Source of the DNA: an uncultured Phascolarctobacterium sp. | GTDB taxonomy: Bacteria > Bacillota > Negativicutes > Acidaminococcales > Acidaminococcaceae | NCBI RefSeq assembly: GCF_934203365.1 | Contig: NZ_CAKPZA010000012.1 | Direction: 5' to 3' (one strand) | DNA length: 64,000 nt | In this document: positions 16,722-51,420 of the stretch, piece after piece | Position numbering within the stretch: position 1 is the first letter of the stretch | How the letters are laid out: each line of letters opens with the position of its first letter | The notes under the pieces: generated by a model | What the model was told of the DNA's origin: nothing | The model's database searches: none | Seen by the model: the letters and a program-made list of their open reading frames with translations, nothing else | Position numbers and translations under genes: made by a program

Positions 16722-16740
16722 ATTACTGCCTTCCTTTCAA

Positions 16741-30796: not shown

Positions 30797-31006
30797 ATGG
30801 TTACTAAAGATACCGGCATTATTGAAGCCGTTCAAAACCATCCTGAAATCATGGAGGTTTTCGCTGAATACGGTCTGGGCTGCATCGGCTGCATGGCTGC
30901 TCATTTCGAAACCATCGGTCAGGGCGCAGGCGCTCACGGCATTGATGTTGATGCTCTTATCGAAGATATCAACAAGGTTATTGCTGAAGCAGAAGCAAAC
31001 AAATAA
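30797..31006 (+). CDS. DUF1858-domain protein (hybrid-cluster-protein-associated redox/disulfide domain)
   Basis: 69 aa starting at ATG 30797 behind an AAAGGAG RBS. CIGCMAAH motif. Confidence 0.55.
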   Translation: MVTKDTGIIEAVQNHPEIMEVFAEYGLGCIGCMAAHFETIGQGAGAHGIDVDALIEDINKVIAEAEANK

Positions 31007-31122
31007 TATAGTGAAGCGGGATAAATACTGCATCGGCATATTTTCACCGCATAAAAAAATGAGGGAACTATCTCCAGCACAAGTGGGGACGGTTCCCTGT
31101 TTTTATAAGGAGGTCTCTGTTA

Positions 31123-32364: not shown

Positions 32365-32425
32365 CAAAAAACACCGGCATCCGCCGTACCCCTGGTACGG
32401 CAGACGTCGGTGTTTTCACGTTTTA
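32365..32425. terminator. Long imperfect hairpin with flanking A- and T-tracts, bidirectional terminator between the convergent LDH and OMP genes
   Basis: aaaaaa-caccggcatccgccgtacc...ggtacggcagacgtcggtg-tttt. Confidence 0.5.
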
Positions 32426-32455: not shown

Positions 32456-33937
32456 TCAATACTCCCAGCTCAGGCCCACAGCCACCAGCTTACTGGTATC
32501 GTCCCCCAGCTTACCATAGCCAACAGCAGTATGCAGCAGCAAATTCTTCTGCAGGCTCTTGCTGTAGCTCAGCTCCACCTCCTGCAGCCCGCCATCATGC
32601 TGTGCCGTCTGCTGCATATCAGCCCAGGTATAGCTCAGTCCCAGTTTGCCGCCATCTGCCAGATAATGGTTAACCTCCGCATAAACGCGTTTCGCATCTG
32701 CGCCCAGCCAATCGCCCAAAATAGCGTCTTTATACGTCCAGCCATTCTTCAGCACCCAATGGCCATACCAGGCATCATTAGTTTTGGCAGCCTCCACGCG
32801 CAAATCCCAGCTGCCGTCCGGCACCAGCTGTGGGAAGTAAACGCCCACATTATAAGCATTTTCGCAGGGGAAGGCATGCGCCTGGTCCTCGCCATACAGC
32901 GAAGCATAAACCTGCACGCCCGGGAAGCGATACTTAAAATCAAGGCCAGCGATATCGTTCCAATTATCCTTTTCGGCAGCATCAGCATTATCGCCCAGCA
33001 GCCAATGCTTATTAAACTTCTTCAGCATCGACATGCGCTCCAGGCCAATCGTAAACGTATCCGTCGGCATAAAATCCACACGCATGCCGACAAGAGCAGC
33101 GTGGTCCTTTTCCAGCGCCGAACCGGAAGTTGCAACCCTGTTACCCTCCAGCCTGCTGGCAAAGACATTGACATTCGCCTTGCCCAAAAACTTCAACGCA
33201 CCATGCTCAAAGGTGTGCGGCTCCAGCAAATTCAGCTTAATTGCTGTCTGCGGCGTTGCATTGCTGCCAAAGGCCAGCTGTCCTGCGCGCCCTGCACCCC
33301 AGGACATCGGCTGCCTGCCAGCAGTAATCCCCCACACGCCCAAATGCGTTTTGGCGTAGCCTTCAACAAGGCTGGCATCACCATGCTCGTCCTTATCCCA
33401 GCTGAAGCGCGGCGTAATGCCCACAGCCAGGTCCTTGCTCAGGCTGCCGCTGATGTGCAGCGTGCCCACAGCGTTAAAGCCATCGCCATAAAGATAGCCA
33501 TTATTATTGTGGTTCAACAGCTGCCAATGTGCCTTGGCGTTATTATACTTATACGCAGCACTGTCCTGCTGCAAATAGGAAAGGTCAACGCTCGCACCAC
33601 GCAGCTTCACATTATTGATTTTCCCTGCACCCTGCAGGTAAGCAATCTCCTCTGCCAGTCCCTCGCGCATTGCATCCAGCCTGGTCTGCAGGTATGGCGG
33701 CAGCGGCTTGCTCTGGGCAATTGCTTCAGCCTGCAGCACCCATTTGGCCATGTCCAGGCGGCTATAAGGCTTGGTATTGGCAGGCATATCCTGGATATAG
33801 CCCATGCCCTCCAGCTTATCAAGATAACCGTAATAGCTGCTGTCCAGCGGCACGTCAGCCGTAACCAGCGGGCTGGCGGCGGCACAGCTGCAGCCCAAGG
33901 CTGCAGCAATTGCTATAGCACTAAGTAGTTTCTTCAT
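32456..33937 (-). CDS. Outer-membrane beta-barrel protein, Wzi-like (capsule-anchoring lectin/porin candidate)
   Basis: Signal peptide. 493 aa. Alternating amphipathic strands. C-terminal ...LSWEY aromatic terminus typical of OM beta-barrels. N-terminal region resembles Wzi. Sits at the edge of a polysaccharide locus. Confidence 0.5.
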   Translation of the reverse strand: MKKLLSAIAIAAALGCSCAAASPLVTADVPLDSSYYGYLDKLEGMGYIQDMPANTKPYSRLDMAKWVLQAEAIAQSKPLPPYLQTRLDAMREGLAEEIAYLQGAGKINNVKLRGASVDLSYLQQDSAAYKYNNAKAHWQLLNHNNNGYLYGDGFNAVGTLHISGSLSKDLAVGITPRFSWDKDEHGDASLVEGYAKTHLGVWGITAGRQPMSWGAGRAGQLAFGSNATPQTAIKLNLLEPHTFEHGALKFLGKANVNVFASRLEGNRVATSGSALEKDHAALVGMRVDFMPTDTFTIGLERMSMLKKFNKHWLLGDNADAAEKDNWNDIAGLDFKYRFPGVQVYASLYGEDQAHAFPCENAYNVGVYFPQLVPDGSWDLRVEAAKTNDAWYGHWVLKNGWTYKDAILGDWLGADAKRVYAEVNHYLADGGKLGLSYTWADMQQTAQHDGGLQEVELSYSKSLQKNLLLHTAVGYGKLGDDTSKLVAVGLSWEY

Positions 33938-34128
33938 CAGTTAGCATCTCCTATGCTTATAAATTTGTTCATTGCAAGTGTATATTATATCGCTTGCTTA
34001 TCGAAAACAGTCTACAGTAATATATTGTAGCAAACTATATTCTATGTTTCAAGATTATTTTATATGCTGATGGCTAAACCTGTATATCGCAATACCATCT
34101 CGTTTGTATGATTTTTCAGAATTTTCGC

Positions 34129-34157
34129 TTGACTTTCGTTACCCTCTTATTTATACT
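34129..34157 (+). promoter_or_regulatory. Putative sigma-70 promoter (TTGACT-17-TATACT) upstream of the Rpn gene
   Basis: Consensus-like -35 and -10 hexamers with a 17-nt spacer. Confidence 0.35.
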
Positions 34158-34330
34158 TAGCTTAGCTTCACATTTACAACAAAATAAGCAGGGCCTACCA
34201 GCTCATGTCGGTAGTATTTAGCAGTACCTACGGTATCCGAATTTCCCGGATGCTATGTGTACTGCTTTTTTTCTTAAGCACCTCATGTTGTATTTTGCTG
34301 AAGCAAATATTATAATTAAAGGAGGAAACT

Positions 34331-35176
34331 ATGACCAAAAAACTATCCAAAAGCAGTCTTCTGCTGACACAGGAAGAGCTGCAAAAGCACATCTTGGGCA
34401 TGACCTTGTTCAACGACCTGCTTGCCAGAGCTGTTTTAGAGGACAAAGAGGCTTGCGAGCATATCCTGCGTGTTCTCACCGGTATCAAAACACTGGTAAT
34501 CAAAAAGAACAAAACGCAGTATGTCATCAGCAAGCTCTCCTCGCACAACATCATCATGGATGTACTCGCTGAGGATGCCAACAACAAGCTTTATGAAATT
34601 GAAATTCAGAAGGCAGATGGCGGCATTGCACATGAAAAGAGGATGCTTTATTACGCATCAACTATCATCAATGAATACTTTTTTAAGGGTGACCAGACTT
34701 ATGCATCTGTACCCGAGCTGCACATTTTTTATATCAGCCAGACAGATATCTGGAAGCTCGGCAAAACCTGCTACCCAATCTTAAAATTTTTAGGCGATAA
34801 CAATACTCCCTACAATGACGGACTGCATATGTGCTATATCAACGCAGAGGTTGATGATAACAGCAGTATTGCGCAGCTTATGCAATATTTTGCTACCGCC
34901 GACGCAGGTGATTTTAGCCAAGGAAAGCTTTCACAATGTATCAATAATCTTAAAACCACAAAGGAGGGACTCGCAACTATGGATAATTTCAGCAAGCAAA
35001 TTTATGAAGCTGGCATTAATGACGGAAGAGCTGAAGGCAAGGCTGAAGGCAAAGCTGAAAGCATCAAAAATCTTATGTCTACAATGAATGTCTCCATTGA
35101 CCAGGCCATGGATATTTTAAAAACACCACCCGAAGAGCACCAGTACTTCAAAGATCTGTTAGCTAAGGAGCAGTAA
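34331..35176 (+). CDS. Rpn-family recombination-promoting nuclease / PD-(D/E)xK putative transposase (YhgA-like)
   Basis: 281 aa. C-terminal EGxxEG-type repeat GRAEGKAEGKAES, then a helical tail typical of the Rpn/YhgA family. Confidence 0.65.
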   Translation: MTKKLSKSSLLLTQEELQKHILGMTLFNDLLARAVLEDKEACEHILRVLTGIKTLVIKKNKTQYVISKLSSHNIIMDVLAEDANNKLYEIEIQKADGGIAHEKRMLYYASTIINEYFFKGDQTYASVPELHIFYISQTDIWKLGKTCYPILKFLGDNNTPYNDGLHMCYINAEVDDNSSIAQLMQYFATADAGDFSQGKLSQCINNLKTTKEGLATMDNFSKQIYEAGINDGRAEGKAEGKAESIKNLMSTMNVSIDQAMDILKTPPEEHQYFKDLLAKEQ

Positions 35177-35194
35177 GCTCCGCCCGCACAAAAA

Positions 35195-35225
35195 GCGCCT
35201 GCCATTTGGCAAGCGCTTTTTCTAT
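35195..35225 (+). terminator. Rho-independent terminator after rpn; first copy of a duplicated hairpin
   Basis: agcgcctgcca-ttt-tggcaagcgct followed by TTTTT. A near-identical copy lies at 44495-44526. Confidence 0.65.
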
Positions 35226-35256
35226 TGCACGATATTCGAGTATATATTTGCTCTTC

Positions 35257-35820
35257 TTACTCTTTTCTCCAGACCATCTTATTAACCACACCAGTGTAGC
35301 TTTGGATAATCTTCACCACCATAGCAGATACGTTCTCATCTACATAATCAGGCACCGGCTGTCCGTCATCGCCATCAAGGTTCATCTGCACTGCTGTGTC
35401 TACAGCCTGCAGCAGGCTCTTTTCGTCAATGCCTGCAAGCACAAAGCAGCCCTTATCCATTGCTTCCGGGTGCTCCGTAGAGGTGCGGATGCAAACCGCC
35501 GGGAACTGATGTCCCACGCTCGTGAAGAAGCTGCTTTCCTCCGGCAGTGTACCAGAATCAGATACTACAGCAAAGGCGTTCATCTGCAGGCAGTTGTAAT
35601 CATGGAAGCCCAACGGCTCATGCTGAATTACGCGCTTGTCCAGTTCAAAGCCGCTTGCTGCCAGACGGTTGCGGGAACGCGGATGACAGGAATACAGAAT
35701 CGGCATATCGTATTTATCCGCCATTTTGTAGGATTCAGCGATAATATTGCTAATGGTGTCGCCCAAATCGCTGCCTACGACGTTCTGATCCACTTCAGGA
35801 TCTGCCAGCTCCAAATCATG
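35257..35820 (-). pseudogene. C-terminal fragment of UDP-N-acetylglucosamine 2-epimerase (WecB/MnaA family), truncated at an AT-rich junction
   Basis: Matches the C-terminal half only (VVSDSGTLPEE, CIRTSTEHPEA). The first ~23 codons of the called ORF (MTKSIKKYLKRL...) are AT-rich and unrelated. Confidence 0.6.
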
Positions 35821-36013
35821 GAAGAAGACGCCGTTCAGTGTATAATATATAATTAAGCGCTTTAAATACTTTTTAATGCTTTTTGTCAAATTCGCCTAAA
35901 GTACGCTGATAATAAACATAACTATTGCTTGAACGCAAAGAAGAGATCGATTGTTTCATTGAATATAGTGTTATAAGCAAACGACTTGCTAGAATAATTC
36001 ACTTTATAACCCA

Positions 36014-36916
36014 TTATTTCTCAGGCGCATATTTTTGCATTAAACATTGTCCATCAATTAATGCCTTTAAGTCAATAATGTCCACGATATTAAATAAATC
36101 ATTGTAAAAAACGCTCAAATATTGAATCAAATCATCAAAAATAAAATAGCATAGCGTTAATAATAGCTTTATTGCCCCCAAATTAGATTCCTCTAACCCC
36201 GCATCGCTTATTAATGAATTATATCCTTGAAACCCATGAGAGAATGAAGAAAATTGAGAATATAGATTATCATATACTACGCTCCACGCTGCTTGTGATT
36301 CGTATTTAAACAATGTATTACTCAATTGGTAAAAAGAGTTCAATTTAGAATCATATATCTTGTACCATTTATCTATCTTTTTATGTTTATCGCCTTTTCT
36401 ATAGCTTTGATTAATCTTTTCTCTATAACTTTTTCCAAGCAATAAAAAAGGATCGTTTTCATAAAATTTAATTCCGCAATTACGCATTTTCTCTAATTCG
36501 TTTAACTTCATCTCTATATTAACTGATTGAGTACTATTGCTTATTTTTATTTTTCTCTCTATATCAGCAATATAATTCCATGCTACAACATTACGATAAC
36601 ACTGCACTTTAGACGATAGTTTAGCACCATCTATTATAAAAAATAAAAACTGTATATATGATTCATACAGACTTCTAGCTAAAATTTGAGAACTGGATAT
36701 ATTTCCATGCTCTATCAATAACATAATGCTATTGAAATTTTCTTTAATGTCTTCCAAACAACGTAATACATGATGGTAAGATATAGTTCTATCGTTATGT
36801 TTAACAATCTCTTTGATAATGGATTGGAAAGTATCATCAAATACTTTAGACATAAATTTTACATCAGAAATTATATCGCTCTTAAGAAGCCAATTGTTAT
36901 TATACAAACTCTTCAC
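36014..36916 (-). CDS. Hypothetical protein (AT-rich island); possible Abi/HEPN-like (R-x4-H near N-terminus)
   Basis: 300-aa open frame in ~28% GC DNA. No confident homology from sequence alone. Confidence 0.35.
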   Translation of the reverse strand: MKSLYNNNWLLKSDIISDVKFMSKVFDDTFQSIIKEIVKHNDRTISYHHVLRCLEDIKENFNSIMLLIEHGNISSSQILARSLYESYIQFLFFIIDGAKLSSKVQCYRNVVAWNYIADIERKIKISNSTQSVNIEMKLNELEKMRNCGIKFYENDPFLLLGKSYREKINQSYRKGDKHKKIDKWYKIYDSKLNSFYQLSNTLFKYESQAAWSVVYDNLYSQFSSFSHGFQGYNSLISDAGLEESNLGAIKLLLTLCYFIFDDLIQYLSVFYNDLFNIVDIIDLKALIDGQCLMQKYAPEK

Positions 36917-37352
36917 CCCATTTAAGATTATTTACTAGAGGACGTTTACTTACAGCTATCTCAATAACATTATATATGTAATCTATCGATTTATCTACAA
37001 GAAATCTTAAGCATCAAACCAATAACTGTCAAAACACGCTTACACGAAAATGACCGCCAGCGTGAGCCTTATTCTCTGTAGTTTGCTTTGCAGTTTTCTG
37101 TACATTTTTGGATAGCAATTGTTTAACACAACTCTCTTCACCTTCTTAAAGATTCGAAGCTATGATGAGCACATACGCCAGATAGTTAAAGCTTGTTTCT
37201 TTAGCGGTTCCAATTTGACTAAAGACGGTTGCTGCTCCCTAGATATTATAACCGGCTTAACCAAATACTCTGCTATGTCATACAATGTCTTCCACTCTTT
37301 TTAGGGAAATTCTCCTGCTGATATTAGGGAATAATTACGCTTTTTCAGGTAC

Positions 37353-38474
37353 TTATATTGTATCATATACACAAATCTCGTATTTTTTGTCTAATAAAAC
37401 AGGTATATCAGGTATATTTTTTAAAGAGTATTTACGTTTCTCTATTTCAAATGCTCTGTTTATATCATCCCCTTCATTTATACTAAAACCAGAATTTGTT
37501 ATTTTATACGTATCCTTAATTCTATCTAGCACATTAGATGAAATTAAAGGTGAAATAAAAAAATCTTCTGTGTATAAAAACAATATATAATTAATTATTG
37601 TAATTTTCTCATCTAAACGCTTTCCTCTTAACTGTTTAAAAAACCTCTTATATTTTTCATTCTTTTTCTCGACAAACGCCATTATTATAGTTTTGTCTTC
37701 TAAAGGAAAAATACATAAATTCATTGTTTCTATTTTCGTACTAGCCTTAGGACTATATGTCATATTAATTAAATTTCCCTCTAGGTCTACTATTAACGCA
37801 ATCTGTCCCTGATATGCTATAGGCACTGTAAATGGCAATTCTTCATATAAACCCATATAATAATTACTATCACGTAAATTACTAATATGATTTTTGGCGA
37901 TTCTGAAAGAATTGCCTAATTCAGTTAGATCAATTTTTATATTATTTATCTGCTTGCTAGCAATATCAAACCAAAGATCATCATCTCCGTAATTCTTTTG
38001 TATGTACTTATAAGCTTCTTTTTCTATTATTCTCTTACTGATGCTCTTTAAAATGTTTTTTAGATCAATCTCTGCTAACATTTTGCTACTAGGTATTGAT
38101 TTATAGTTTGTAGGATTCTCGTATTCTCTAAATAAACTACTATCACAATCATTACAAATTATATAAAAAACACCAGCTTCAGCTATACCCTTTTCTTCCT
38201 TTTGCAATGGGGATTTTAAAATGGTATTCGCATAATATAATTTGCCGTTTTTTGCAATATTTTTTAATATGAATTGAGGAACTGTATGTGATTTACAAAA
38301 TCCATCACGATGTTTTTTACAATAAAAACACGTATTTAACTTAGCTTGCTCTCTAGCATGCTTAAGAATTTTACCAACTTCCTTTCTCTGTTCTATCGTA
38401 ATTTTATCTTCTTCAAATTCATTAGAAAAACCTAAATCTAATGATACATACATATTACGCCTCCACATATTCAA
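37353..38474 (-). CDS. Hypothetical protein with N-terminal Cys/His cluster (CFYCKKHRDGFCKSHTVP, HNH- or Zn-finger-like)
   Basis: 373-aa ORF in an AT-rich island. Confidence 0.35.
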   Translation of the reverse strand: MNMWRRNMYVSLDLGFSNEFEEDKITIEQRKEVGKILKHAREQAKLNTCFYCKKHRDGFCKSHTVPQFILKNIAKNGKLYYANTILKSPLQKEEKGIAEAGVFYIICNDCDSSLFREYENPTNYKSIPSSKMLAEIDLKNILKSISKRIIEKEAYKYIQKNYGDDDLWFDIASKQINNIKIDLTELGNSFRIAKNHISNLRDSNYYMGLYEELPFTVPIAYQGQIALIVDLEGNLINMTYSPKASTKIETMNLCIFPLEDKTIIMAFVEKKNEKYKRFFKQLRGKRLDEKITIINYILFLYTEDFFISPLISSNVLDRIKDTYKITNSGFSINEGDDINRAFEIEKRKYSLKNIPDIPVLLDKKYEICVYDTI

Positions 38475-38682
38475 TATCTAACTGCTTTTCACCCATCAGC
38501 AATCTAACCTTGCAAAGCAGCTTTTGTATTTTGTCAACCCCAATTCCTCAAAATCAGCAAATAAACTCCCTGTTTCCGTACAAATTTCGTTAAACTTCTT
38601 ATATCATTGTAGAATATAGATAACTATCTTTACTTTAATTGAACGATTTATATTCACATCAATTTTGGCACCTACAGCAAAC

Positions 38683-38716
38683 ACCGCCCTGCGCACATGC
38701 GCCTGGCGGTGTTTTT
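38683..38716 (+). terminator. Hairpin caccgcc...ggcggtg followed by TTTTT
   Basis: Stem-loop with inner gcgcacatgcgc palindrome and a T-run. Lies between the AT-rich island and the ugd remnant. Confidence 0.4.
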
Positions 38717-38732
38717 ACATTTCATTCTTTTC

Positions 38733-39967
38733 TTAGTCTCTTCTGAACAAATCTCTGGTATATACTTTTTCCTGCACATCATCCAGGCAACTGTCATAGC
38801 GGTTAGCAATAATCGCCTGACTTTCAGCCTTGAACTTCTCGAGGTCGTTTACCACAGCACTGCCAAAGAAGGTACTGCCATCCTCCAGCGTAGGTTCGTA
38901 AACAATAACCTTCGCACCTTTGGCCTTAATGCGCTTCATTACTCCCTGAATACTGCTCTGGCGGAAGTTGTCAGAGTTGGATTTCATGGTCAGGCGGTAT
39001 ACGCCGATTACAGGCTCTTTGCCTTCCTTCTGTGCATCATATTCAGCATTTGCTTCATAGCCACCGGCGATTTCCAGCACACGCTCAGCGATGAAGTCTT
39101 TACGCGTTCTGTTGCTTTCAACAATCGCTTCGATGATGTTTGCCGGTACATCTGCATAGTTCGCCAGCAGCTGCTTGGTGTCCTTAGGCAGGCAGTAACC
39201 GCCATAACCAAAGCTGGGGTTGTTATAATGGCTGCCAATACGCGGATCAAGGCAAACGCCGTTGATAATCTGCTGGGTGTCCAGTCCCTTCATTTCTGCA
39301 TATGTATCCAGCTCGTTGAAATAGGAAACGCGCAGTGCCAGATAAGTGTTGCTGAACAGCTTAACAGCCTCTGCCTCAGTGAAGCCCATGAATAAGGTGT
39401 CAATGTTCTCTTTAATTGCGCCCTCCTGCAGCAGGCCGGCAAAGGTATGCGCAGCCTTCACCAAGCGCTCGTCCTCCAGGTCGGTGCCCACGATGATGCG
39501 GCTCGGATACAGGTTATCGTACAGCGCCTTGCTTTCACGCAAGAATTCCGGGCTGAAGATGATGTTCTTGCTACCAGTTTTTTCACGGATGCTTTTGGTG
39601 TAGCCAACGGGAATGGTGGATTTGATTACCATAATCGCATTGGGGTTGTACTGCATAACCAGCTTGATTACTGTTTCTACAGCGCTGGTGTCGAAAAAGT
39701 TCTTTTTGCTGTCGTAGTTAGTCGGTGCAGCGATAATAACAAATTCTGCGTCTTTATAAGCCATTTCTGCATCCAGCGTAGCAACAAGGTTGAGGTCCTT
39801 TTCAGCCAGATATTTTTCAATATAATCATCCTGAATCGGGGAAAGCTTTTTGTTGATCAGTTCAACCTTCTCCGGATAATATCAACGGCCTTTACCTCAT
39901 TGTGCTACGCAAGCAGCGTAGCCAGGGAAAGTCCAACGTAACCGGTACCGGCAACGGCAATTTTCAT
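38733..39967 (-). pseudogene. ugd: UDP-glucose 6-dehydrogenase gene inactivated by a TAG nonsense codon (39905-39907) and a 1-nt deletion (~39872-39875)
   Basis: Manual translation from ATG 39967 gives [30 protein letters not shown]. The frame then shifts −1 into [45 protein letters not shown], which continues as the called ORF 38733..39764. Confidence 0.75.
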
Positions 39968-39994
39968 GTTCATCATACTCTTTTGTTTATATAA

Positions 39995-41060
39995 TCAGCA
40001 GTTATAAAATTTCTTGTACCATTCAGCAAATTTGCGCAAGCCTTCGCGCAGCGGTGTGCTCGGTTTAAAGCCAAAGTCGCGCTCCAGCGGTGATGTGTCT
40101 GCATAGGTTACAGGCACATCACCGGGCTGCATGGGTACAAGCTTTTTGTGTGCTTCGAAGTCATAATCAGCAGGCAGTACTCCTGCGCGCAGCAGCTCTT
40201 CCTGCAGGATGGTCACAAAGTCCAGCAGGTTTTCGGGATGGCTGTTGCCAATGTTATATACCTTATACGGCGGCAAGGGCAGTCCGTCCTCGCCCACCTT
40301 GCGCTCAGGCGGTGCCTGCATTACGCGCTTTACGCCTTCTACGATATCGTCAACGTAGGTAAAGTCGCGCTTGCAATTGCCGTAGTTAAAGATTTCAATG
40401 GTTTTGCCTGCCAGCAGCTTGTTGGTGAAGCCAAAGTAGGCCATGTCCGGGCGGCCTGCAGGACCATATACGGTGAAGAAGCGCAGTCCGGTTGAAGGAA
40501 TGTTGTACAGTTTGCTGTAGGCATGTGCCAGCAGCTCGTTGGATTTTTTAGTTGCTGCATACAGCGATACAGGGTTATCTACCTTGTCATCAGTAGAATA
40601 CGGCACTTTTTTGTTGGAGCCATATACGCTGGAGCTGGAAGCATATACAAGATGCTCTACGCCCTTGGCTCCGTTGTCATAGGAGTGGCGGCAGGCTTCC
40701 AGTATGTTGTAAAAGCCAATAAGGTTACTTTCGATGTAGGCATCCTGGTTGGTGATGGAATAGCGCACGCCTGCCTGTGCTGCCAGGTTTACTACTATTT
40801 CAGGCTTGTAGTCGGCAAAGATTTTGTCGATGAGTGCTTTGTCAGCCAGGTTGCCTTTGATGAAGGTACACTAGGAGTCGCTGTGCTCGGCAGCGCTGGC
40901 AGCAATCTGCTACAGACGGTATTCCTTGATGGATACGTCGTAGTAGTCGTTCATGTTGTCCAGACCGATGATTTGCACCAGTGACATGGAGCGCAAAAGC
41001 TCCAGAACAAGGTTGCTGCCGATGAAGCCGGCGGCACCGGTTACTAAGATTGTTTGCATG
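39995..41060 (-). pseudogene. NAD-dependent epimerase (UDP-glucuronate 4-epimerase-like) with two in-frame TAG codons (40900-40902, 40861-40863)
   Basis: Manual translation from ATG 41060: MQTILVTGAAGFIGSNLVLELLRSMSLVQIIGLDNMNDYYDVSIKEYRL*QIAASAAEHSDS*CTFIKGNLADKALIDKIFADYKPEIVVNLAAQAGVRYSITNQ..., continuing in-frame into ORF 39995..40768. Confidence 0.7.
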
Positions 41061-41278
41061 ATATACATATCTCCTTACACGAGCATAATAGTATGCTATA
41101 TTATAACACAGTTTAATAAAAATTGCTTAAATGCTTTGTGAAAATTCATTTAAAAACATTGATAATTCAGGCTTGTACTTGAATTTAATCTCAAGAAAGT
41201 CAAGAAAGCTAATGTAATTCTGATAAAAGCATCACCTTTAATCGCTATACTGTTAATAAGAATAACTTCCAGAAAAAA

Positions 41279-42208
41279 TTAAAGAAAGTTTTCAGCTTTA
41301 AAATTAATATTTTTTATGTTTCTATGTTGCTTCGAAACACATTTGAATTTCTCAGGATCAAATATTGCGTAATTAATTCCGCCTTCATTTATAGTGCTCT
41401 TATACTTTATTCCATCATAGCCAAGGTTTTTTATATAATCAGCAATATACTGTGTTGGTACATAATCTATGTCTTTATCAAACCTTCTCATAGGTTTAGA
41501 AATCTCTTTTGCTATTTGCTTGATAGCTTCTATATTTATTGCAAACCATGTAAGATCAACATCTTCATATTGAAAAGGAGTTATGCTATCCAAATAACAC
41601 AAATCAATAATATTTAATGGCACTATATTTTCAAACACGCCTAAAGTAATATGGTCATAAACTCTAGCCCGCACCTCATGAAACGTAGTTATATCGCTAT
41701 CAGCCAAATATAAACACGGAATACCCTCTGAATTAATTCTTCCAGCAGTGGCAACATTTTTAGGCGGAGCTCCTATATCCTTATCGTCTTTATATCCTAT
41801 ATCATAATGTGCTGCATCGCATATTCTTGCACGGAATAAGGATAATTTCCCGCTAGGAATTTCCAGTTTTAAAAATTTCAGTAATTCTGTTAACTGCTCT
41901 ACATTAACCTCTGATGAATGGAATCTATTATGATACTTGATGTCCTCGCAGAATTCTTTTCAACTATACTTTTTTAATATAGCAGACTGATTTATATATT
42001 TTTCATTTAAAAATTCGCTAATTATAACATTCTCAGTAAAAATCTGCGCGTTTTCATCTAATTTAGAATGAAATATGGCCTTTAAAATGATCTCTATATC
42101 ATGGCTTTTTACACTAAACATATTCCATTTTTCCAAAATATCATACAGGCTAGCAGAATACTTTTCTACTCCTTGAATATGCTTCATGGAACTAACAGGT
42201 GTAAACAA
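41279..42208 (-). pseudogene. RES-domain protein (putative NAD+-targeting toxin) with ~90-aa N-terminal extension, interrupted by an in-frame TGA at 41960-41962
   Basis: ORFs 41960..42208 and 41279..41707 are in the same frame. The 75 codons between them are open and carry the RES signature (...ATAGRINSEGIPCLYLADSDITTFHEV...) but have no ATG/GTG/TTG start. Confidence 0.55.
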
Positions 42209-42366
42209 GTCTAAAATTTATTCTAAATAGGGCAATAATTCCTCATTTGTGTTGCTATCATATACATTTTGATTTTCTGATTTTGTTATTTCGCAGGTTC
42301 CTACATTGTGTAAGGAATCAACTATAGATTTAAATGTCTTGTCGGAGAAACAGTTCGATCCTATTT

Positions 42367-43305
42367 TCATTTTATTTCTCCCAAACGTTTACTCATTAAT
42401 TCTAAATGATGCATAATGGAACATTTTTTGACTACTCCTAAACCAGGAAATCTACCTTTATCACAATAATCATAAAACGCTTTTAATCCCTTGGTTTCTT
42501 GAATCTTATTCTCTATGCACCAATGCTTTAGCTCAGAAACAGCTTCACCAAATTTACCGGCAATATCTCTGTTATTAATATTGTGTTCCGAAACAAAATG
42601 ATGTACTCTTAAATCATCATCAGAGCTTAAATAGACTATATGAATAGCTACAGCTATAGGAGCAAATCCAGATTCACTATATTCTGAACCTACTATGGAA
42701 TAATCCGAAAACCCACTATAGCCTTCTTCAATATACTCCCTATGCCAATCAGAAAAAAATTCATCTGTGTTGTTTTTGTAGTCAACATTACGCTTTTGCT
42801 TAATAAACGAATCTTCTAAGATGATTTTTTCACCTTTAACATTTCTCTTGATACTTCTTCTGTCAGGGATTATTGTATATAATGGTTTTTCGTTTTCATA
42901 AGCTTCTAAATAACTACTTATATCATCCACAGAGTCAATTATCGCAATACTATTTTTCATGTCATTAACAACTATTTCGTTATTATCCTGGAATAAATAC
43001 GCCTTTATGACATTACCTTTTTCTAATTCAATTTTTAATTTTCCATACAGTGAATTTTCATCCAACTTCTCTTCCTCCATGCTTACTGGATACGCACCCA
43101 CAGACGGATTTTGGACAAAAACAAGTTTATGATTTTTCTTATTAAATAACTCTACTGTTTTTAAAAGAGAGGAAGATAGCTTGACAGGTTCAATTATAGG
43201 TATAATATTATTCCCTAATAAATCATTTTCCAATAATTCTCTTAATGCGATTAATTCAAATTGTCTACCACGTAAAAAAGGAAAATACATATTATACACC
43301 TCCAC
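42367..43305 (-). CDS. Hypothetical protein, 'sce7725-family'-like (N-terminus MYFPFLRGRQFELIALRELLEN)
   Basis: 312 aa, AT-rich. 14-nt overlap with the upstream PD-(D/E)xK gene. The family assignment is from memory of the N-terminal motif, not a search. Confidence 0.45.
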   Translation of the reverse strand: MEVYNMYFPFLRGRQFELIALRELLENDLLGNNIIPIIEPVKLSSSLLKTVELFNKKNHKLVFVQNPSVGAYPVSMEEEKLDENSLYGKLKIELEKGNVIKAYLFQDNNEIVVNDMKNSIAIIDSVDDISSYLEAYENEKPLYTIIPDRRSIKRNVKGEKIILEDSFIKQKRNVDYKNNTDEFFSDWHREYIEEGYSGFSDYSIVGSEYSESGFAPIAVAIHIVYLSSDDDLRVHHFVSEHNINNRDIAGKFGEAVSELKHWCIENKIQETKGLKAFYDYCDKGRFPGLGVVKKCSIMHHLELMSKRLGEIK

Positions 43306-44245
43306 ACTTTTGCCTTAAATAAAAGTCAAGATTTTTATAATCTTCTTGACTAAAATTCAGAAAGTATACTAAAAATTTTAATTCTATAGGAACATTACTA
43401 AATTCATTTTTCGTCACTTTTACTCGTTTTTTTAAGAGTTTTAAAAAATTACTATATATATAATCGATAGGAATCTTTAAAAATTCTTTTTTACATTCGC
43501 TATAATGATTGAACGAATTAGTTTTTGGCAAACTACCAAAATAATTCATCAAAATGCTTTGATATTCTTCCTTTCTCAAAATCGAAAATATAGTTTCTTT
43601 GCTTAATCTATTTCTATATGCTTTGGGCTTCTTTACAGTGCTAATGGCTCCATTCTTCTTAATATAATATATTCCTACAGGTTTACTCAGATTAGCTATT
43701 AGCTTTTCTATTGCTTCTAGATTATCCTCATAGGTAACCACAGCTACATGGTCAAAAGCAAGATAGTAATCATTTATTTGAGATTCCAGGCGCTCCAAAT
43801 TATCTAGTTCTGTCTTAATTTCATAAACCACTGCTTTACCATTTATCATTAAGAAATCAGCTTTAGAATTAGCTATAGGCAATTCAGTTAAAGCTGTAGT
43901 AGTATTAACACTATGAACTCCTAGCAAAAGCTTGTTAAGCAACGTATTTTTATAATAATATTCATTTCTGTAACTCTTCTTTAAAACATCGTATATATGC
44001 TTAAATAAGTCGCCGTATGATTTATTATTCAGCTCATATTGCTGTACAATATAATTTAAATTATCATTTTCTCTAGCAGAAACTATATCCCTAAGAACAT
44101 TGCGAGTGAATATTTTGTTTAGTATGCTCATATTTTTCATCATTTTAAATTCACCCTTCCATAGTTTCTTAGTGAGAATCTGCAAAAAATCTGTTCTTTC
44201 AGTAAAACCTAGCCAAAGTATCTTGTACACCAAAAGCATAGTCAA
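43292..44245 (-). CDS. PD-(D/E)xK nuclease-fold protein, 'sce7726-family'-like
   Basis: Core motif ...SKADFLMINGKAVVYEIKTELDNLE (D...ExK). 317 aa. The true start is probably the internal MMKNMSIL. Confidence 0.45.
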   Translation of the reverse strand: MTMLLVYKILWLGFTERTDFLQILTKKLWKGEFKMMKNMSILNKIFTRNVLRDIVSARENDNLNYIVQQYELNNKSYGDLFKHIYDVLKKSYRNEYYYKNTLLNKLLLGVHSVNTTTALTELPIANSKADFLMINGKAVVYEIKTELDNLERLESQINDYYLAFDHVAVVTYEDNLEAIEKLIANLSKPVGIYYIKKNGAISTVKKPKAYRNRLSKETIFSILRKEEYQSILMNYFGSLPKTNSFNHYSECKKEFLKIPIDYIYSNFLKLLKKRVKVTKNEFSNVPIELKFLVYFLNFSQEDYKNLDFYLRQKCGGV

Positions 44246-44494
44246 AACAAGGAACCATAAAATGTTTTTCTTTTGTTTCTATCTCATTCAAAGACAAAAA
44301 TTTATCAGAAAATATATTACGCTTATATAATATATTATACACTACTACAGTTAAATCAACAAATCATATATGACACACTAAAAGATACGTTTCTTCCATC
44401 CAACTCATAAGAACTCTTCTGCAAATTCTAACGAACTCTAAGATGTAGTTTCATATAGTTTCCTATAAAGCGCCTTGTAAATCATGATATATTT

Positions 44495-44526
44495 AGCGCC
44501 TGCCATCTGGCAAGCGCTTTTTAATC
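44495..44526 (+). repeat. Second copy of the rpn-terminator hairpin (agcgcctgccatCtggcaagcgcttttt), orphaned from any + strand gene
   Basis: 27/28 nt identical to 35194-35221. Single difference in the loop. Confidence 0.6.
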
Positions 44527-45396
44527 TTACTCTACAATCCCCTTCAGATATTCCAAAAACTTATCCTTCAGGTCCGGTCTGCGCAGCGCGTATTCCACTG
44601 TCGCTTCCAGATATCCTTGCTTGTCGCCTACGTCATAACGACGGCCAACAAAGTCATACGCATACATGGCCTGTTCCTTCGCCAGCACCTTCAATGCATC
44701 AGTAAGCTGAATTTCGCCACCACGTCCAGGTTCCGTATGCTCCAGGATGGAGAATATCTCCGGCGTGATTACATAACGTCCCAATACCGCCAAACGGCTG
44801 GGTGCTTCTTCTACAGCAGGCTTTTCTACCATATCGTTTACTTTATAGATACGCTCTGCATCTGTTGCTTCGCTTGCTACAATGCCATAAGATGAAACCT
44901 TTTCCTGCGGCACTGTTTGGCAGCCAAGCACGCTGGCACCAGTGTTATTATATACATCCATGAGCTGCTTTAAGCAGGGATATTCATCGTTATAAACAAC
45001 GTCATCACCTAAGAGGACTGCAAAAGGCTCATTACCTACGAACGCTTTGGCACACAGGATGGCGTGTCCCAGTCCTTTAGGCTCCTTTTGACGGATGTAG
45101 TGCAGGTTGATGTTGCCAATATCCCTTACCATCGCCAACAGGTCGTCTTTGCCATGCTCACGCAGGTTTTGTTCCAGCTCAGGGCTGTAGTCAAAGTGGT
45201 CTTCGATGGAGCGTTTGTTGTGGCCGGTGATGATTAAGATGTCTTCAATTCTGGAAGCAAGTGCTTCTTCAATGATGTATTGAATTGTAGGTTTATCTAC
45301 GATTGGCAGCATTTCTTTTGGGCACGCTTTTGTTGCTGGCAAAAAGCGGGTGCCTAAGCCTGCAGCAGGGATTACAGCTTTGGTTATTTTTTGCAT
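44527..45396 (-). CDS. galU: UTP--glucose-1-phosphate uridylyltransferase
   Basis: AVIPAAGLGTRFLPATK nucleotidyltransferase motif. I set the start at MQKITK. Confidence 0.85.
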   Translation of the reverse strand: MQKITKAVIPAAGLGTRFLPATKACPKEMLPIVDKPTIQYIIEEALASRIEDILIITGHNKRSIEDHFDYSPELEQNLREHGKDDLLAMVRDIGNINLHYIRQKEPKGLGHAILCAKAFVGNEPFAVLLGDDVVYNDEYPCLKQLMDVYNNTGASVLGCQTVPQEKVSSYGIVASEATDAERIYKVNDMVEKPAVEEAPSRLAVLGRYVITPEIFSILEHTEPGRGGEIQLTDALKVLAKEQAMYAYDFVGRRYDVGDKQGYLEATVEYALRRPDLKDKFLEYLKGIVE

Positions 45397-45436
45397 CCTA
45401 AAAAGCTCCATTTCTTTTACAATTATTTATTAAAAC

Positions 45437-46393
45437 CTATTTCCTTAGGGGAATCTCTGAGCATATTACTTTTGTATTTGCATTAGCTACGCCATTCTTC
45501 TTCAGAGCACGTACAAAAATTTCTTTTAATTGTTCAGCATTGCTGCTAGGGCCTATGATGATTCTGTCAAGTAATTCATTTATCTTGAGTTTACGATTAT
45601 TATATTTTATCTTCGAAAAGTTTAGTTTCTTAACTATCCGCGGTACACCATTTATAACTTCTATGTTTTCTTCGATTATCTCGCTAAGGCAATTTCCATA
45701 CAGAGATTTATTATACAAAACTCTCCATTCACATTCTTCCTCAAAACCTTTATGTTTTAAACTTAGCGCAGTCATAAAGAATTTATCTAATATGTAACTA
45801 TCAAAATTAGGCACCATCTTTAATATTTCACAATCATCTTTTAGTCTTCTAGTAAATTCCGAAATGGCATGACTAAAATCATTTTTATTAAAATAAAACA
45901 TTGGGATTGTCATAACATTTGTATTAACAGCTTCTTCTAAAAACATTGATGTATTAAAAACAAGAGCAACACCATTATTCAATCCGTATGCACGCCACAT
46001 TGATAATCTGCCATACTCATCTTCTTCCTTTGTATGTTCAGTCAAACAAAAAGCATAGGTATTCATCAAGTGAGAACTCTGATGATCATAATACTGTTCT
46101 AAAGTATTTGTACAGCCTTTATGTATCTCATCCATTATTTCTCGCAGTTCTCCACCTGTATCATTTTTATAAAAATCCATCAACAGTCGGTTGCCTATTT
46201 CAATTTCACTGTAATCGTTCATATAGCATACATTGTTTAGCCATATAGTCTTGTTTTCAATAATGCTAAGAGCTACAGCAGCTGATGTATAATGAGCTAA
46301 TCTTATATTTTTAGTTTTTAAGTTATCAACTCTATCCAAGTATTCTTTGTAAATTATCTTGTTTATTATTTCTTGGCTATACATTTCTATCAC
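45437..46393 (-). CDS. DUF2971-family protein (HYTS...ND..E signature; defence-island-associated family)
   Basis: The LAHYTSAAVALSIIEN...CYMNDYSEIEIG pattern matches DUF2971 from memory. AT-rich. Confidence 0.45.
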   Translation of the reverse strand: MIEMYSQEIINKIIYKEYLDRVDNLKTKNIRLAHYTSAAVALSIIENKTIWLNNVCYMNDYSEIEIGNRLLMDFYKNDTGGELREIMDEIHKGCTNTLEQYYDHQSSHLMNTYAFCLTEHTKEEDEYGRLSMWRAYGLNNGVALVFNTSMFLEEAVNTNVMTIPMFYFNKNDFSHAISEFTRRLKDDCEILKMVPNFDSYILDKFFMTALSLKHKGFEEECEWRVLYNKSLYGNCLSEIIEENIEVINGVPRIVKKLNFSKIKYNNRKLKINELLDRIIIGPSSNAEQLKEIFVRALKKNGVANANTKVICSEIPLRK

Positions 46394-46474
46394 CTTACGT
46401 TATCCTAATTAAACATTAATACAATGTTTAGTTTTACTCTAATATCATTCCCTTAGTACTATTAAAACATGCCT

Positions 46475-47152
46475 TTATTCTATCAATCCTTCAAATACTC
46501 CATCTCTCGGAGCATTCTCTTCACATTCACTTATCCATTTGCCTAATTTGTTGATAGCTGCTTGAACCTTTGCTTTAGTCAAACCTTCCTCAGCAGCTTT
46601 ATCCCAAAGCCACTCAAAAAATAAATTTATGTCTTTAGGATAGCAAACACCATCATTATCTAATAAATGGTTTAATTCCGGACTCATGGATTTATTACTT
46701 GAGTACGAATCACTAAGTACTCTAATATCCCATCCTTTTTCTGTCCTTGTAATTTTATAATGCTCAATATATTGCCAGCGTCTTGTAAAAAACTTCAATG
46801 TAAATGTCTTGCCTATAGTTTTATCTTTAGAATTATCATTAATGTGAACATCATCTATAAATGCCAGCAAATCCTGAACCGGATGTACGTGCCTATAAAA
46901 GCGTACATCATCAGGTGTACACTCTCGATTTTCAATCATATACTTATGATGCTTAGGCTCATGACCGCTGTCTTTTAAAGACATATGTAATTCATGAGCT
47001 TTTCTAGCCATTTCGTCATAAAGCCTACTAGCATCATCACCAGAAAGTAACTTTTGGTCACTTTCTATGTATTGCCAAATTTGGTTATGGAGGATTTCAA
47101 GTTCAGATTTAAGCTTTGTTTGAGATTCCGTTAATTTTAATTTTTTAGGCAT
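46475..47152 (-). CDS. Hypothetical protein
   Basis: 225-aa AT-rich ORF. No recognisable motif. Confidence 0.3.
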   Translation of the reverse strand: MPKKLKLTESQTKLKSELEILHNQIWQYIESDQKLLSGDDASRLYDEMARKAHELHMSLKDSGHEPKHHKYMIENRECTPDDVRFYRHVHPVQDLLAFIDDVHINDNSKDKTIGKTFTLKFFTRRWQYIEHYKITRTEKGWDIRVLSDSYSSNKSMSPELNHLLDNDGVCYPKDINLFFEWLWDKAAEEGLTKAKVQAAINKLGKWISECEENAPRDGVFEGLIE

Positions 47153-48495: not shown

Positions 48496-48507
48496 TATTA
48501 TCCCTCA

Positions 48508-50810: not shown

Positions 50811-51240
50811 TTTTATCAGTCTCCCATTTTTAGAATTTTATTTTATTTCCTATTAATTTCCCTGTATACGTAAATTAATAGTCGTGCGTTTATAACTAAA
50901 TAAGTAGTACCTGACAAAATTCTTGTTAGTGATGCAGCTATTGAAGTATCGTTGGCTGTTAGCAGTACCTATGGTGCTCGGTTTTCCGAGTGTTGTTGTA
51001 TGCTACTTTTTTGTTTGTTGCTTATAAGCTTCATAAGCAATATAAGCCTGAGTTTAGAAATTTTGTTGAGCTGCTTCGTGACATAAGACTAGGTAGAACG
51101 CCTCAGTACTCGCCTATCAAAAGCAAACATGTACATAAGCTTTTACAACTTATGCGAGTTATGAGCGGCAATCGTGAATATGAGGAATTGTGGAACGAAA
51201 GTAGCCCAAACCTAATAAACTTAAAGGAGATGACATTACT

Positions 51241-51420
51241 ATGAGAAAAATTGTATCGCTTAGTTTTGATGAAGCTAGAGCTGAAGGAGAAAACAAAGGA
51301 AAATTTGCTACCGTTAAGCGTATGCTAAAACGTGGAAAAAGCCTTCAATAAATTTTACTTATTACCGATTTACCTCTAGCTAAAGTACAAGAACTACAAA
51401 CGGAAGTAAAACACGTGTAA
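51241..51420 (+). pseudogene. Remnant of an Rpn-family nuclease C-terminus (EG-repeat and ITDLPLAKVQEL tail), split by a stop
   Basis: Translates to ...ARAEGENKGKFATVKRMLKRGKSLQ* then ILLITDLPLAKVQELQTEVKHV*. Resembles the C-terminus of the intact rpn at 34331..35176. Confidence 0.4.

Follow-up and report, generated by a model that had tools for sequence, protein, structure and literature searches.

The locus described here raises the question of why a 28-nt hairpin occurs twice, 9.3 kb apart, beside a nuclease gene of the Rpn type, and whether the two copies are the ends of one inserted segment. The window, by which we mean the whole 64-kb stretch of DNA analysed, contains the features listed in Table 1. 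In the original prediction, the copies marked the breakpoints of a single duplication/insertion event. Our comparisons favour another reading, which we hold with a probability of about 65%: the 28-mer is the terminator of an rpnL/rpnS-type gene, copied within the capsule-defence locus, and its copies form a small locus-specific repeat family rather than the ends of one 9.3-kb event.

Table 1. Positions in the window of the hairpin copies, their flanks and the surrounding genes.
Feature	Position	Strand	Description
rpnL-like gene	34331..35176	+	281 aa; PD-(D/E)XK nuclease domain (PDDEXK_2)
Predicted internal rpnS	34962..35176	+	SD AAGGAGG at 34962-34968; ATG at 34979 (M217); 65 aa
Hairpin copy 1	35194..35221		Loop ATTT; on + strand AGCGCCTGCCATTTGGCAAGCGCTTTTT; T5 at end
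Right flank of copy 1	35222..35244		23 nt, ctattgcacgatattcgagtata; in most contexts (R1, R2, R6, R10) it accompanies the hairpin
wecB remnant (UDP-GlcNAc 2-epimerase)	35257..35889	-	C-terminal part
AT-rich two-gene island	36014..38474	-	DUF5677 protein and orf373; 27-34% GC
ugd pseudogene	38733..39982	-	Frameshift near codon 40
NAD-dependent epimerase pseudogene	39995..41068	-	Interrupted by in-frame stop(s)
Inserted RES cassette	41145..44458	-	sce7726 43292-44245, sce7725 42367-43305, RES 41282-42370
Left flank of copy 2	44459..44494		About 35 nt; family L5
Hairpin copy 2	44495..44522		Loop ATCT; on + strand AGCGCCTGCCATCTGGCAAGCGCTTTTT; T5 tail on +
galU	44527..45411	-	TIGR01099, exceeds curated cutoff
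Second rpn remnant	51038..51411	+	YhgA/Transposase_31-type, aa 166-296 of 298; frameshift and stop

The recurrence of the 28-mer with one loop change, as originally described, was confirmed. The copies are identical at 27 of 28 positions, the single mismatch lying in the loop, and a search allowing up to 3 mismatches gave 2 matches in the window, with 0 expected from 100 shuffles. Scanning the 64 kb with an nhmmer profile of the family added no other copy; a weak match at 20484-20505 falls within a coding region. Copy 1 is situated between the convergent rpn gene (+) and wecB remnant (-), beginning 18 nt after the rpn stop codon (35174-35176) and ending 36 nt short of that of the wecB remnant (35257-35259). 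The A5 and T5 on its two sides (AAAA at 35190-35193) give it the shape of a bidirectional terminator. Copy 2 indeed faces no gene on the + strand, none being present to its left, and abuts the 3' end of galU, 4 nt from the stop codon (44527-44529, - strand). Here the A-tract is replaced by ATTT and the 23-nt right flank ctattgcacgatattcgagtata is missing. The flank to the left of copy 2 is the one that L120-type strains have at the epimerase-upstream/hairpin/wecB junction and, together with TTGCCA within the hairpin, matches the -35/-10 consensus on the - strand (44513-44484).

The conserved unit is a 24-nt hairpin, with a GC stem of 10 bp and a loop of 4 nt, followed by T5. The + strand folds with a C.A mismatch in the stem, and the - strand forms a perfect 10-bp stem including G.U (the two copies having z of -4.8 and -5.1). 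Folding of 56-nt contexts gave -15.7 to -28.8 kcal/mol with z of -3.7 to -5.1, and 0 of 200 shuffles were equally stable. U-tracts are present on both strands at copy 1 (T5 on +, TTTTTGTG on -). At copy 2, the tract is good on the gene-less + strand only, and the tail on the galU strand is poor (UAAAUAUAU). Rfam returned only weak, partial matches, in which sRNA models aligned by their 3'-terminal ends. The related strain L083 has a group II intron that begins right after the T-tract on the wecB strand; insertion at terminators is a known habit of bacterial class C introns. We infer that the 28-mer is an intrinsic (Rho-independent) terminator belonging to an rpnL/rpnS-type gene.

The rpn product scored 31.3 bits against PF12784 (cutoff 27.4) and 43.7 bits against TIGR01784, under the cutoff of 52.1; the source annotation reads 'PD-(D/E)XK nuclease family transposase'. 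According to the accessible text of Zhong et al. 2023 (PMC10400941) and Kingston et al. 2017 (PMC5350276), RpnL/RpnS are gene-within-gene toxin-antitoxin defence genes that occur in arrays. The former describes arrays arising from tandem duplication, repeat numbers that vary among members and small RpnS homologues downstream. The present gene carries 1 to 4 units of a 4-aa repeat (GKAE/GLAE) depending on the strain, and members of its cluster (277, 281, 285 and 289 aa) are 97-99% identical and differ by these repeats. The repeats begin 16-19 residues past M217, whose ATG is preceded at 10 nt by the SD sequence. An internal start yielding a small C-terminal protein, a hallmark of the family, is predicted from this arrangement. 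Relatives carry a stand-alone rpnS gene (61, 65 or 69 aa) together with the hairpin, and homology among the stand-alone copies begins about 22 nt upstream of the ATG. The locus is rich in rpn, rpnS and rpn-remnant copies. A second degraded rpn C-terminus, originally placed at 51241-51420, is real, but its extent had been drawn too small (Table 1) and it represents a different paralogue, which a related contig (L091) carries as an intact gene of 298 aa (68-75% identity); the hairpin 3' of the remnant differs from the 28-mer.

The distribution of the hairpin in other genomes was then examined. Related matches in GTDB contigs (one genome per species) were restricted to 9 loci in Phascolarctobacterium-type bins, with 1-2 copies per representative genome; up to 3-4 copies were found per metagenome contig, and viral contigs gave 0 matches. 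All copies are in direct orientation, and wherever neighbours could be mapped they were wzi, ldh, wecB, ugd, galU or rpn. The hairpin is a low-copy element limited to the wzi-capsule-defence locus of the gut bacterium Phascolarctobacterium succinatutens, the species to which the window belongs. As comparator loci were fetched by exact hairpin match, diverged copies and hairpin-less junctions are under-represented among them; most are metagenome contigs or MAGs, some under mislabelled taxa (E. coli, Bacteroides and Prevotella bins).

Among 169 occurrences in related contigs, we distinguished 8 left-flank (L1, L2 and so on) and 12 right-flank (R1, R2 and so on) families, which are mixed. The 3' end of rpn or rpnS precedes the hairpin in 107 (63%), among them 42 genes of full length and about 50 small ORFs, which in many cases have M217 as their exact start. 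Other left flanks are the RES-cassette leader, a Gabija-like island, a group II intron and IS; the right flanks include wecB, ugd, galU and rmlB. The pairs seen were L1/R1, L1/R3, L2/R1, L2/R3, L2/R4, L3/R3 and L3/R5. Since L1 and L2 each occur with both R1 and R3, exchange of flanks has taken place across the hairpin. Several different contexts have in common two linked alleles of the loop, ATTT and ATCC. Junctions fall exactly at the stem base in left families L2, L4 and L5 and right family R4, and right-hand breakpoints are spread over +0 to +23 nt. Ordinary causes account for some junctions, namely a group II intron or IS256-like and ISL3-like transposase genes.

The gene content between the copies proved as originally listed: a wecB fragment, an AT-rich pair, ugd and epimerase pseudogenes and the RES cassette. 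Relative to a longer L120 copy (315-aa ORF), the wecB remnant has an internal deletion, and the AT-rich island is replaced by other genes in other strains. ugd is intact in L003 and L120 (414-417 aa), and the epimerase pseudogene is 98% identical, in a single frame, to an intact 357-aa gene of L120. The RES gene contains in-frame stops. The cassette is flanked by an imperfect direct repeat, about 18 nt long, of the empty-site sequence, and is missing from the empty sites of L120 and L028. Inserts in the locus are largely anti-phage (Thoeris, a Gabija-like pair, a PycTM gene and the RES cassette).

If the copies were the left and right breakpoints of a single duplication/insertion, possibly Rpn-promoted, that remodelled 35222-44494, this segment should come and go as a unit. 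Direct repeats 9.3 kb apart enclosing decayed genes and AT-rich insertions are what such an event could leave, and an rpn gene does abut copy 1. The strains show otherwise. The order [RES-cassette leader]-hairpin-galU recurs in 14 other contigs, and in 7 of these it was possible to map RES, epimerase and ugd on the left as well. What follows past ugd is not the same in these strains (rpnS plus hairpin immediately adjoining ugd, large defence genes, a PycTM gene or a group II intron). The copy 2 arrangement is fixed in every strain with the RES cassette, while the DNA from ugd to copy 1 varies independently, and a sister species (L028) lacks only 41145-44525, that is, the RES cassette with copy 2. 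All 15 galU-adjacent copies have the RES leader on their left and none has rpn; the rpn-hairpin-galU junction expected of an empty site was found in 0 of the 169 occurrences, which argues that 35222-44494 is not a unit. A decayed hairpin at the equivalent place behind galU in L120-type strains indicates that the galU-hairpin junction is old. One [RES leader]-hairpin-wecB junction (L132) would fit a circle or tandem duplication of such a unit, but its wecB is far longer (about 325 codons aligned) and it has a 4-kb capsule block absent from the window, and so it does not derive from the window's segment. What stands of the original prediction is that homologous copies lie at junctions between modules of different origin; their bracketing a single unit we regard as very improbable. 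Even less credible is that the 28-mer is a generic REP/MITE-like palindrome or a common terminator that arose independently twice. The element is imperfectly palindromic and does lie at gene 3' ends, and a degenerate free-loop pattern finds matches by chance in many unrelated genomes, but these differ in loop and flanks, with a single one in each genome. A high-copy, genome-wide REP, named in the original prediction as the finding that would speak against it, does not agree with 1-4 copies per related genome at a single locus, and the 27/28 identity combined with flank homology to other copies excludes independent origin.

The hairpin might also be a site dedicated to recombination, with an asymmetric stem (C.A/G.U) that a structure-specific enzyme, perhaps the adjacent Rpn, would read in an integrase-less, integron-like shuffling of capsule and defence cassettes. 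The mixing of flanks, the several independent junctions at the stem base, the uniform orientation, the frequent proximity to rpn/rpnS and the stem mismatch kept in most copies would all suit such a site, and RpnA is reported, in the accessible text of PMC5350276, to increase RecA-independent recombination in E. coli. On the other hand, common descent accounts for the kept mismatch, the right breakpoints have no fixed position, introns and transposases explain some junctions, and the RES cassette was inserted 35 nt off the hairpin rather than at it. The ORFs of 30-64 kb contain no tyrosine or serine recombinase, only a split IS110 (53183-54462), and Rpn nucleases are described in the accessible text of PMC10400941 as having little sequence specificity and not being transposases. 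Intergenic spacers of about 80 nt, with selection against intragenic breaks, would make breakpoints cluster near the hairpin anyway, so that clustering is no proof of a recombinogenic nature of the hairpin itself. We consider a dedicated site unlikely. A bolder version, in which the rpnS-hairpin module is a working recombination joint, the folded, asymmetric hairpin being the preferred substrate of the neighbouring Rpn and breaks in it causing capsule and anti-phage modules to be exchanged, deleted and captured independently of RecA, seems to us very improbable; if true, it would represent integrase-free cassette shuffling and the first defined DNA target for Rpn proteins.

Under the favoured reading of a terminator copied within its locus, the hairpin would have been carried along by the segmental duplications and truncations that yield rpn arrays and orphan rpnS genes, the copied module probably comprising the SD, rpnS, the hairpin and about 23 nt. 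Several direct copies in one locus provide short portable homologies and intergenic 'safe' breakpoints, and recombination at or beside them would have swapped genes on both sides. Exchange at these 28-51 nt repeats was probably of RecA-type or illegitimate, possibly aided by Rpn. Copy 1, with rpn, hairpin and wecB remnant, would be of the original type and act as a bidirectional terminator. The T5 of copy 2 faces no gene, which suggests that it is a derived copy. Lacking rpn, it would have become fixed behind galU, serving as a probably leaky galU terminator ahead of the later-inserted sce7726/sce7725/RES cassette. Homologous recombination alone is insufficient for the first arrival of the hairpin there, with its breakpoint precisely where T5 ends, and one illegitimate or site-directed event would be needed.

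The rpn gene resembles RpnL/RpnS in its N-terminal PD-(D/E)XK domain, its helical C-terminal tail with strain-variable 4-aa repeats, its predicted internal SD and ATG (the family's repeats lie 8-20 residues after the Met of the small protein), nearby stand-alone small homologues and truncated copies, grouping with other defence genes, and a gene without surrounding inverted repeats or target duplications. Toxic endonuclease activity neutralised by RpnS and a role in phage defence are marks of the family, to which the present gene is assigned by sequence. It belongs to the PDDEXK_2 (PF12784) branch, whereas those E. coli proteins that have been characterised belong to Transposase_31 (PF04754), and the accessible text of PMC10400941 and PMC5350276 makes no mention of a terminator hairpin travelling with rpnS to capsule-locus junctions.

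As in bidirectional intrinsic terminators, the GC-rich 10-bp stem carries a 4-nt loop, copy 1 has an A-tract upstream and a T-tract downstream, and neither of the two converging stop codons is more than 40 nt away from it. Unlike ordinary ones, a single sequence is reused behind rpn, wecB, ugd, galU and rmlB, and the T-tract of copy 2 sits on the gene-less strand only. With REP, BIME and REPIN elements the hairpin shares its short, repeated, imperfectly palindromic form, gene 3' ends and an asymmetric mismatch; those elements, however, number tens to hundreds genome-wide, against 1-4 copies in one locus here, where the copies move with adjacent coding sequence (rpnS) and the window's ORFs from 30 to 64 kb include no RAYT (IS200/IS605-like) transposase. 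As in integron attC arrays, imperfect hairpins in direct orientation bound co-oriented modules that can be exchanged, and several of these modules are defence genes. An attC site, though, is 57-141 nt long with R''-L''/L'-R' boxes and extrahelical bases, compared with 24 nt here; the modules here are multi-gene with their own promoters and their breakpoints are not fixed, and no IntI/recombinase domain besides the split IS110 was detected in the ORFs of 30-64 kb. K-loci, O-antigen loci and pneumococcal cps owe their mosaic structure to recombination at conserved sequences on their flanks or at their junctions. The present locus is similarly a hypervariable capsule locus between conserved genes, with sugar-nucleotide gene remnants (wecB, ugd, galU) at its junctions and IS and low-GC inserts; it differs in that a terminator module of 28-51 nt, linked to rpn/rpnS, forms its recurrent junction sequence, and in that its inserts are largely anti-phage systems.

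The hairpin downstream of rpn (copy 1), a 28-mer of sequence AGCGCCTGCCATTTGGCAAGCGCTTTTT, recurs beside galU (copy 2), the loop differing by one T-to-C change. With up to 3 mismatches allowed, the window contains no further match, and 100 dinucleotide-preserving shuffles yielded no match at all, confirming the duplication claimed in the original prediction. Nor did a profile of the whole family detect a third copy in the window; a weak profile match at 20484-20505 was rejected, being inside a coding region. Copy 1 lies between the stop codons of rpn (35176) and the wecB remnant (35257, - strand) and is bordered by AAAA on one side and TTTTT on the other. Copy 2 ends 4 nt from the galU stop codon (44527-44529, - strand), and no + strand gene is present to its left. 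The + strand RNA folds into a stem with a C.A mismatch and the - strand into a fully paired 10-bp helix, one of the pairs being G.U, and all four 56-nt contexts folded better than 200 of 200 shuffles.

Gene order was determined with Pfam, NCBIfam and PADLOC, as shown in the table below.

Features of the locus in the window
Feature	Coordinates	Strand	Lesion
ldh	30822-32075	+	
wzi	32456-33937	-	
PDDEXK_2 Rpn-like gene (rpn)	34331-35176	+	
Hairpin copy 1	35194-35221		
wecB remnant	35257-35889	-	
DUF5677 + orf373 pair, AT-rich	36014-38474	-	
ugd	38733-39982	-	frameshift near codon 40
NAD-dependent epimerase	39995-41068	-	interrupted by stop(s)
RES	41282-42370	-	in-frame stops
sce7725	42367-43305	-	
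sce7726	43292-44245	-	
Hairpin copy 2	44495-44522		
galU	44527-45411	-	
DUF2971 protein	45437-46393	-	
orf225	46475-47152	-	
SIS / nucleotidyltransferase-HAD / GHMP-kinase trio	47860-50810	-	
rpn remnant	51038-51411	+	one frameshift, one stop
Thoeris ThsA/ThsB	51477-52926	-	
Split IS110	53183-54462	+	
Capsule biosynthesis genes	54573 onward	-	

This order, together with the lesions in ugd and epimerase, agrees with the genes originally listed between the two copies. The interrupted epimerase is 98% identical, in a single frame, to an intact 357-aa gene, and the RES alignment spans 363 codons with 99.4% identity; an intact RES gene (363 aa) is present in several other strains. The SIS / nucleotidyltransferase-HAD / GHMP-kinase trio is probably responsible for heptose-nucleotide synthesis. 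The 294-aa GalU ORF had no exact record, the called gene being 289 aa. PADLOC gave no match for Rpn, DUF5677, orf373, sce7725 or RES, and its only match for sce7726 was the 'cll' model. A megablast search of 33900-46500 against E. coli genome and plasmid sequences gave no useful match. The degraded rpn C-terminus earlier placed at 51241-51420 is real, but its extent had been set too small: it corresponds to residues 166-296 of a Transposase_31/YhgA-type Rpn, with 68-75% identity to an intact gene on contig L091 (three-digit L-numbers denote related loci or contigs retrieved through a hairpin match). A tblastn search of the window with its own Rpn missed this remnant, which was detected only with the Transposase_31-type query from L091; the remnant and the rpn gene preceding copy 1 are different paralogues.

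Judging from its shape, position and flanking tracts, the hairpin is predicted to be an intrinsic terminator. Independent support for this role came from L083, where a group II intron (16739-18429; Rfam D1-D4 and domain V/VI, D1D4-3 at 127.7 bits; RT at 17211-18353) immediately follows the hairpin T-tract on the wecB strand. Insertion behind terminator stem-loops is characteristic of bacterial class C introns, and the L083 intron would be a terminator-targeted insertion. A consensus terminator scan listed neither hairpin; we assume that the A/T tracts lengthen the stem and consume the tail. A further terminator hairpin, a long one (aaaaaacaccggcatccgccgtacccctggtacggcagacgtcggtgtttt), follows wzi at 32367-32416, and L120 and L028 carry it behind ugd at about 83% identity; it is apparently a second terminator reused within this locus.

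Concerning the distribution of the hairpin, a search with a free loop in one genome per species returned 71 stretches. Most were chance palindromes from unrelated phyla, single in their genomes and different in loop and flanks, and were discarded. Nine were related loci (L028, L031, L033, L039, L045, L054, L065, L070 and L072), all of Phascolarctobacterium-type sequence, some in mislabelled bins, with 1-2 copies per genome. The mapped genes within reach of these hairpins were always wzi, ldh, wecB, ugd, galU or rpn. Viral contigs gave zero matches, and metagenome contigs gave 108 stretches with a maximum of 3-4 copies on one contig. The low copy number, the single gene neighbourhood and the lack of viral matches indicate that the hairpin is low-copy and locus-specific. 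A REP element scattered genome-wide, which the original prediction had named as what would refute it, was thus rejected for the genomes covered. The GTDB bins of L031, L033, L045 and L072 are labelled Escherichia coli, Bacteroides sp. CAG:545 or Prevotella sp.; their contigs are 94-97% identical to the window over ldh-wzi and clearly Phascolarctobacterium, and the bins are probably contaminated or mislabelled.

We then clustered the 150 nt on each side of 169 hairpin occurrences (at most 3 mismatches) into left (L1-L8) and right (R1-R12) flank families.

Flank families of the hairpin occurrences
Family	n	Flank
L1	107	rpn or rpnS 3' end
L2	17	RES-cassette leader
L3	16	another gene end; next to metA in sister lineage
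L4	9	Gabija-like island (OLD + UvrD)
L5	5	epimerase upstream region
L6	3	diverged rpn end
L7	2	group II intron
L8	1	ISL3-like element
R1	71	wecB 3' end
R2	27	wecB flank, 23 nt, then ugd
R3	26	heterogeneous; representative L099: unassigned 305-aa ORF + membrane protein
R4	15	galU
R5	6	rmlB
R6-R12	1-4 each	large defence-like genes, Fic-like gene, IS256-like transposase gene

The combinations L1/R1, L1/R3, L2/R1, L2/R3, L2/R4, L3/R3 and L3/R5 were all present, a four-gamete pattern which shows exchange of left and right flanks across the hairpin. The linked loop alleles ATTT (72) and ATCC (70) each occur in several flank contexts; a third, intermediate form, ATCT (13), carried by copy 2 of the window, is less common. 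This spread of alleles suggests exchange or conversion between paralogous hairpin copies.

The two copies had been proposed to mark the breakpoints of one duplication or insertion of 35222-44494, perhaps promoted by Rpn. The arrangement RES leader-hairpin-galU is found in 14 other contigs with unvarying flanks, and in 7 of these the mapped block comprises ugd-epimerase-RES cassette-hairpin-galU. Beyond ugd the content differs: rpnS and hairpin directly on ugd in L082, L084 and L086; rpnS and hairpin, a wecB remnant, a second hairpin and the group II intron in L083; a PycTM gene and a YhgA-type rpn in L091; and large proteins of 1250-1418 aa in others. Contigs L120, L095 and L142 display the order rpn-hairpin-ugd-epimerase-hairpin-wecB-(4 kb)-galU, devoid of the RES cassette, and L132 carries ugd-epimerase on the opposite side of wecB. 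In the sister species L028, the sole window DNA absent is 41145-44525 (RES cassette and copy 2). No rpn-to-galU junction was found among the 169 occurrences. On these strain comparisons a single insertion is rejected: 35222-44494 is not a unit, is not present or absent as one among the related strains compared, and its 9.3 kb should not be read as one event. What stands of the breakpoint interpretation is that derived hairpin copies lie at recombination joints in an rpn-rich locus. For annotation, identical short repeats around a segment are in themselves no evidence that it moves as a unit.

Copy 2 shares its left-hand 35 nt with L120-type loci, where this sequence (L5) separates the epimerase upstream region from the hairpin of wecB, and the RES cassette was inserted 35 nt from copy 2. 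To its right, homology to other copies ends exactly with T5, where the galU 3' end starts. L120 retains a decayed hairpin at equal distance from the galU stop (AGTGCCTG...CAAACGCTTTTTaatcTTA), and L159 harbours intact hairpins behind both wecB and galU. The shared L5 flank and the copies in L120 and L159 identify copy 2 as an old, rpn-less family member. It has kept the + strand T5 tail with no + strand gene left, and has lost the A-tract for the U-tail of a galU transcript; we infer a bidirectional ancestor resembling copy 1, from which it arose by rearrangement at the hairpin. Compared with L120 and L028, the sce7726/sce7725/RES cassette (41145-44458) has been inserted, and about 18 nt of empty-site sequence border it as an imperfect direct repeat. 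A - strand consensus match at 44513-44484 places TTGCCA inside the hairpin and TATCAT in the conserved left flank; going by this pattern match, copy 2 may double as the promoter region of the cassette.

The window Ldh and Rpn exactly match proteins of Phascolarctobacterium succinatutens or uncultured Phascolarctobacterium. Members of the 90%-identity Rpn cluster (including P0016-P0030) are 277, 281, 285 or 289 aa long and differ only in the number of GKAE/GLAE units, from 1 to 4. The repeats begin 16-19 residues past Met217, and the codon of this residue (ATG 34979), the predicted RpnS start, is preceded at 10 nt by the strong Shine-Dalgarno (SD) sequence AAGGAGG (34962-34968). Judged from these sequence features, namely the repeat-number variation, the repeat position and the SD before the internal ATG, the gene is of RpnL/RpnS type. 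PMC10400941 describes variable 4-aa repeats with an internal SD and start as hallmarks of RpnL/RpnS gene-within-gene toxin-antitoxin defence genes. It also presents rpn genes as other than conventional transposases and without defined ends, with arrays formed through tandem duplication of genomic segments and small RpnS homologues downstream of some copies. Among our L1 occurrences, 42 were full-length rpn and about 50 were small ORFs, many of them intact genes of 61, 65 or 69 aa that start exactly at MDNFSKQIYEAG. In stand-alone rpnS genes, homology with the window sets in about 22 nt before the ATG; the inclusion of the SD and the identical start indicate that the copied unit is SD-rpnS-hairpin plus 9-23 nt. 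Such intact genes, with SD and hairpin and without the nuclease part, are found in L028 (4349-4546), L082 (reverse strand, about 5083-5290), L033, L094, L113 and L133, often adjoining ugd, and may be orphan antitoxin genes.

Other putative defence genes occur in the region. A type I Thoeris pair (ThsA, Macro-type, PADLOC E = 2e-93; ThsB, TIR, E = 3e-99) lies inside the capsule locus, adjoining the YhgA-type rpn remnant and the split IS110. The DUF5677 and orf373 genes (27-34% GC; orf373, 373 aa, has no family match) occupy the place of the wecB 5' part; DUF5677 genes are found at the same hotspot in L091, L065 and the R9 context, and the two are a possible, uncharacterised defence pair. Upstream of galU, where the window carries the DUF2971 gene and orf225, L083, L084 and L086 contain orf280, a longer orf225 homologue, with a Gabija-like OLD/UvrD pair, as well as a 901-aa helicase and an HTH gene. 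This position is a second defence hotspot.

Taking these results into account, we propose that segmental duplication and truncation of rpnLS would have spread the terminator, that the resulting direct repeats of 28-51 nt would mediate occasional exchanges and deletions, and that selection would retain only breakpoints in short intergenic spacers. The lower length limit of RecA-dependent recombination is about 25 bp in E. coli, and these repeats are near it. Such selection would also make breakpoints cluster near the hairpin, and the clustering is therefore no proof that the hairpin itself is recombinogenic. A dedicated recombination site, possibly cut by Rpn, is improbable: no recombinase was found among the ORFs of 30-64 kb apart from the split IS110, right-hand breakpoints range from +0 to +23 nt, and some junctions have ordinary causes (intron, IS). 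An integron was rejected too, as these ORFs include no IntI recombinase and the hairpin lacks attC architecture.

Under the proposed scheme of rpnLS duplication, a short terminator can travel with rpnL/rpnS copies in a hypervariable capsule/defence locus and become a recurring module junction. The locus adds, for a gut commensal among the Negativicutes, a system of RpnL/RpnS type whose repeat number varies and whose rpnS also occurs as orphan genes. This system lies at a hotspot of swaps between strains that involve Thoeris, a Gabija-like pair, a PycTM gene, the RES cassette and capsule genes. The locus also provides a concrete substrate for asking whether Rpn nucleases initiate rearrangements around their genes. 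All of this belongs to kinds of system already known, of which the locus is a fresh example: rpnLS arrays accompanied by orphan rpnS, terminator reuse, and mosaicism of a capsule/defence region.
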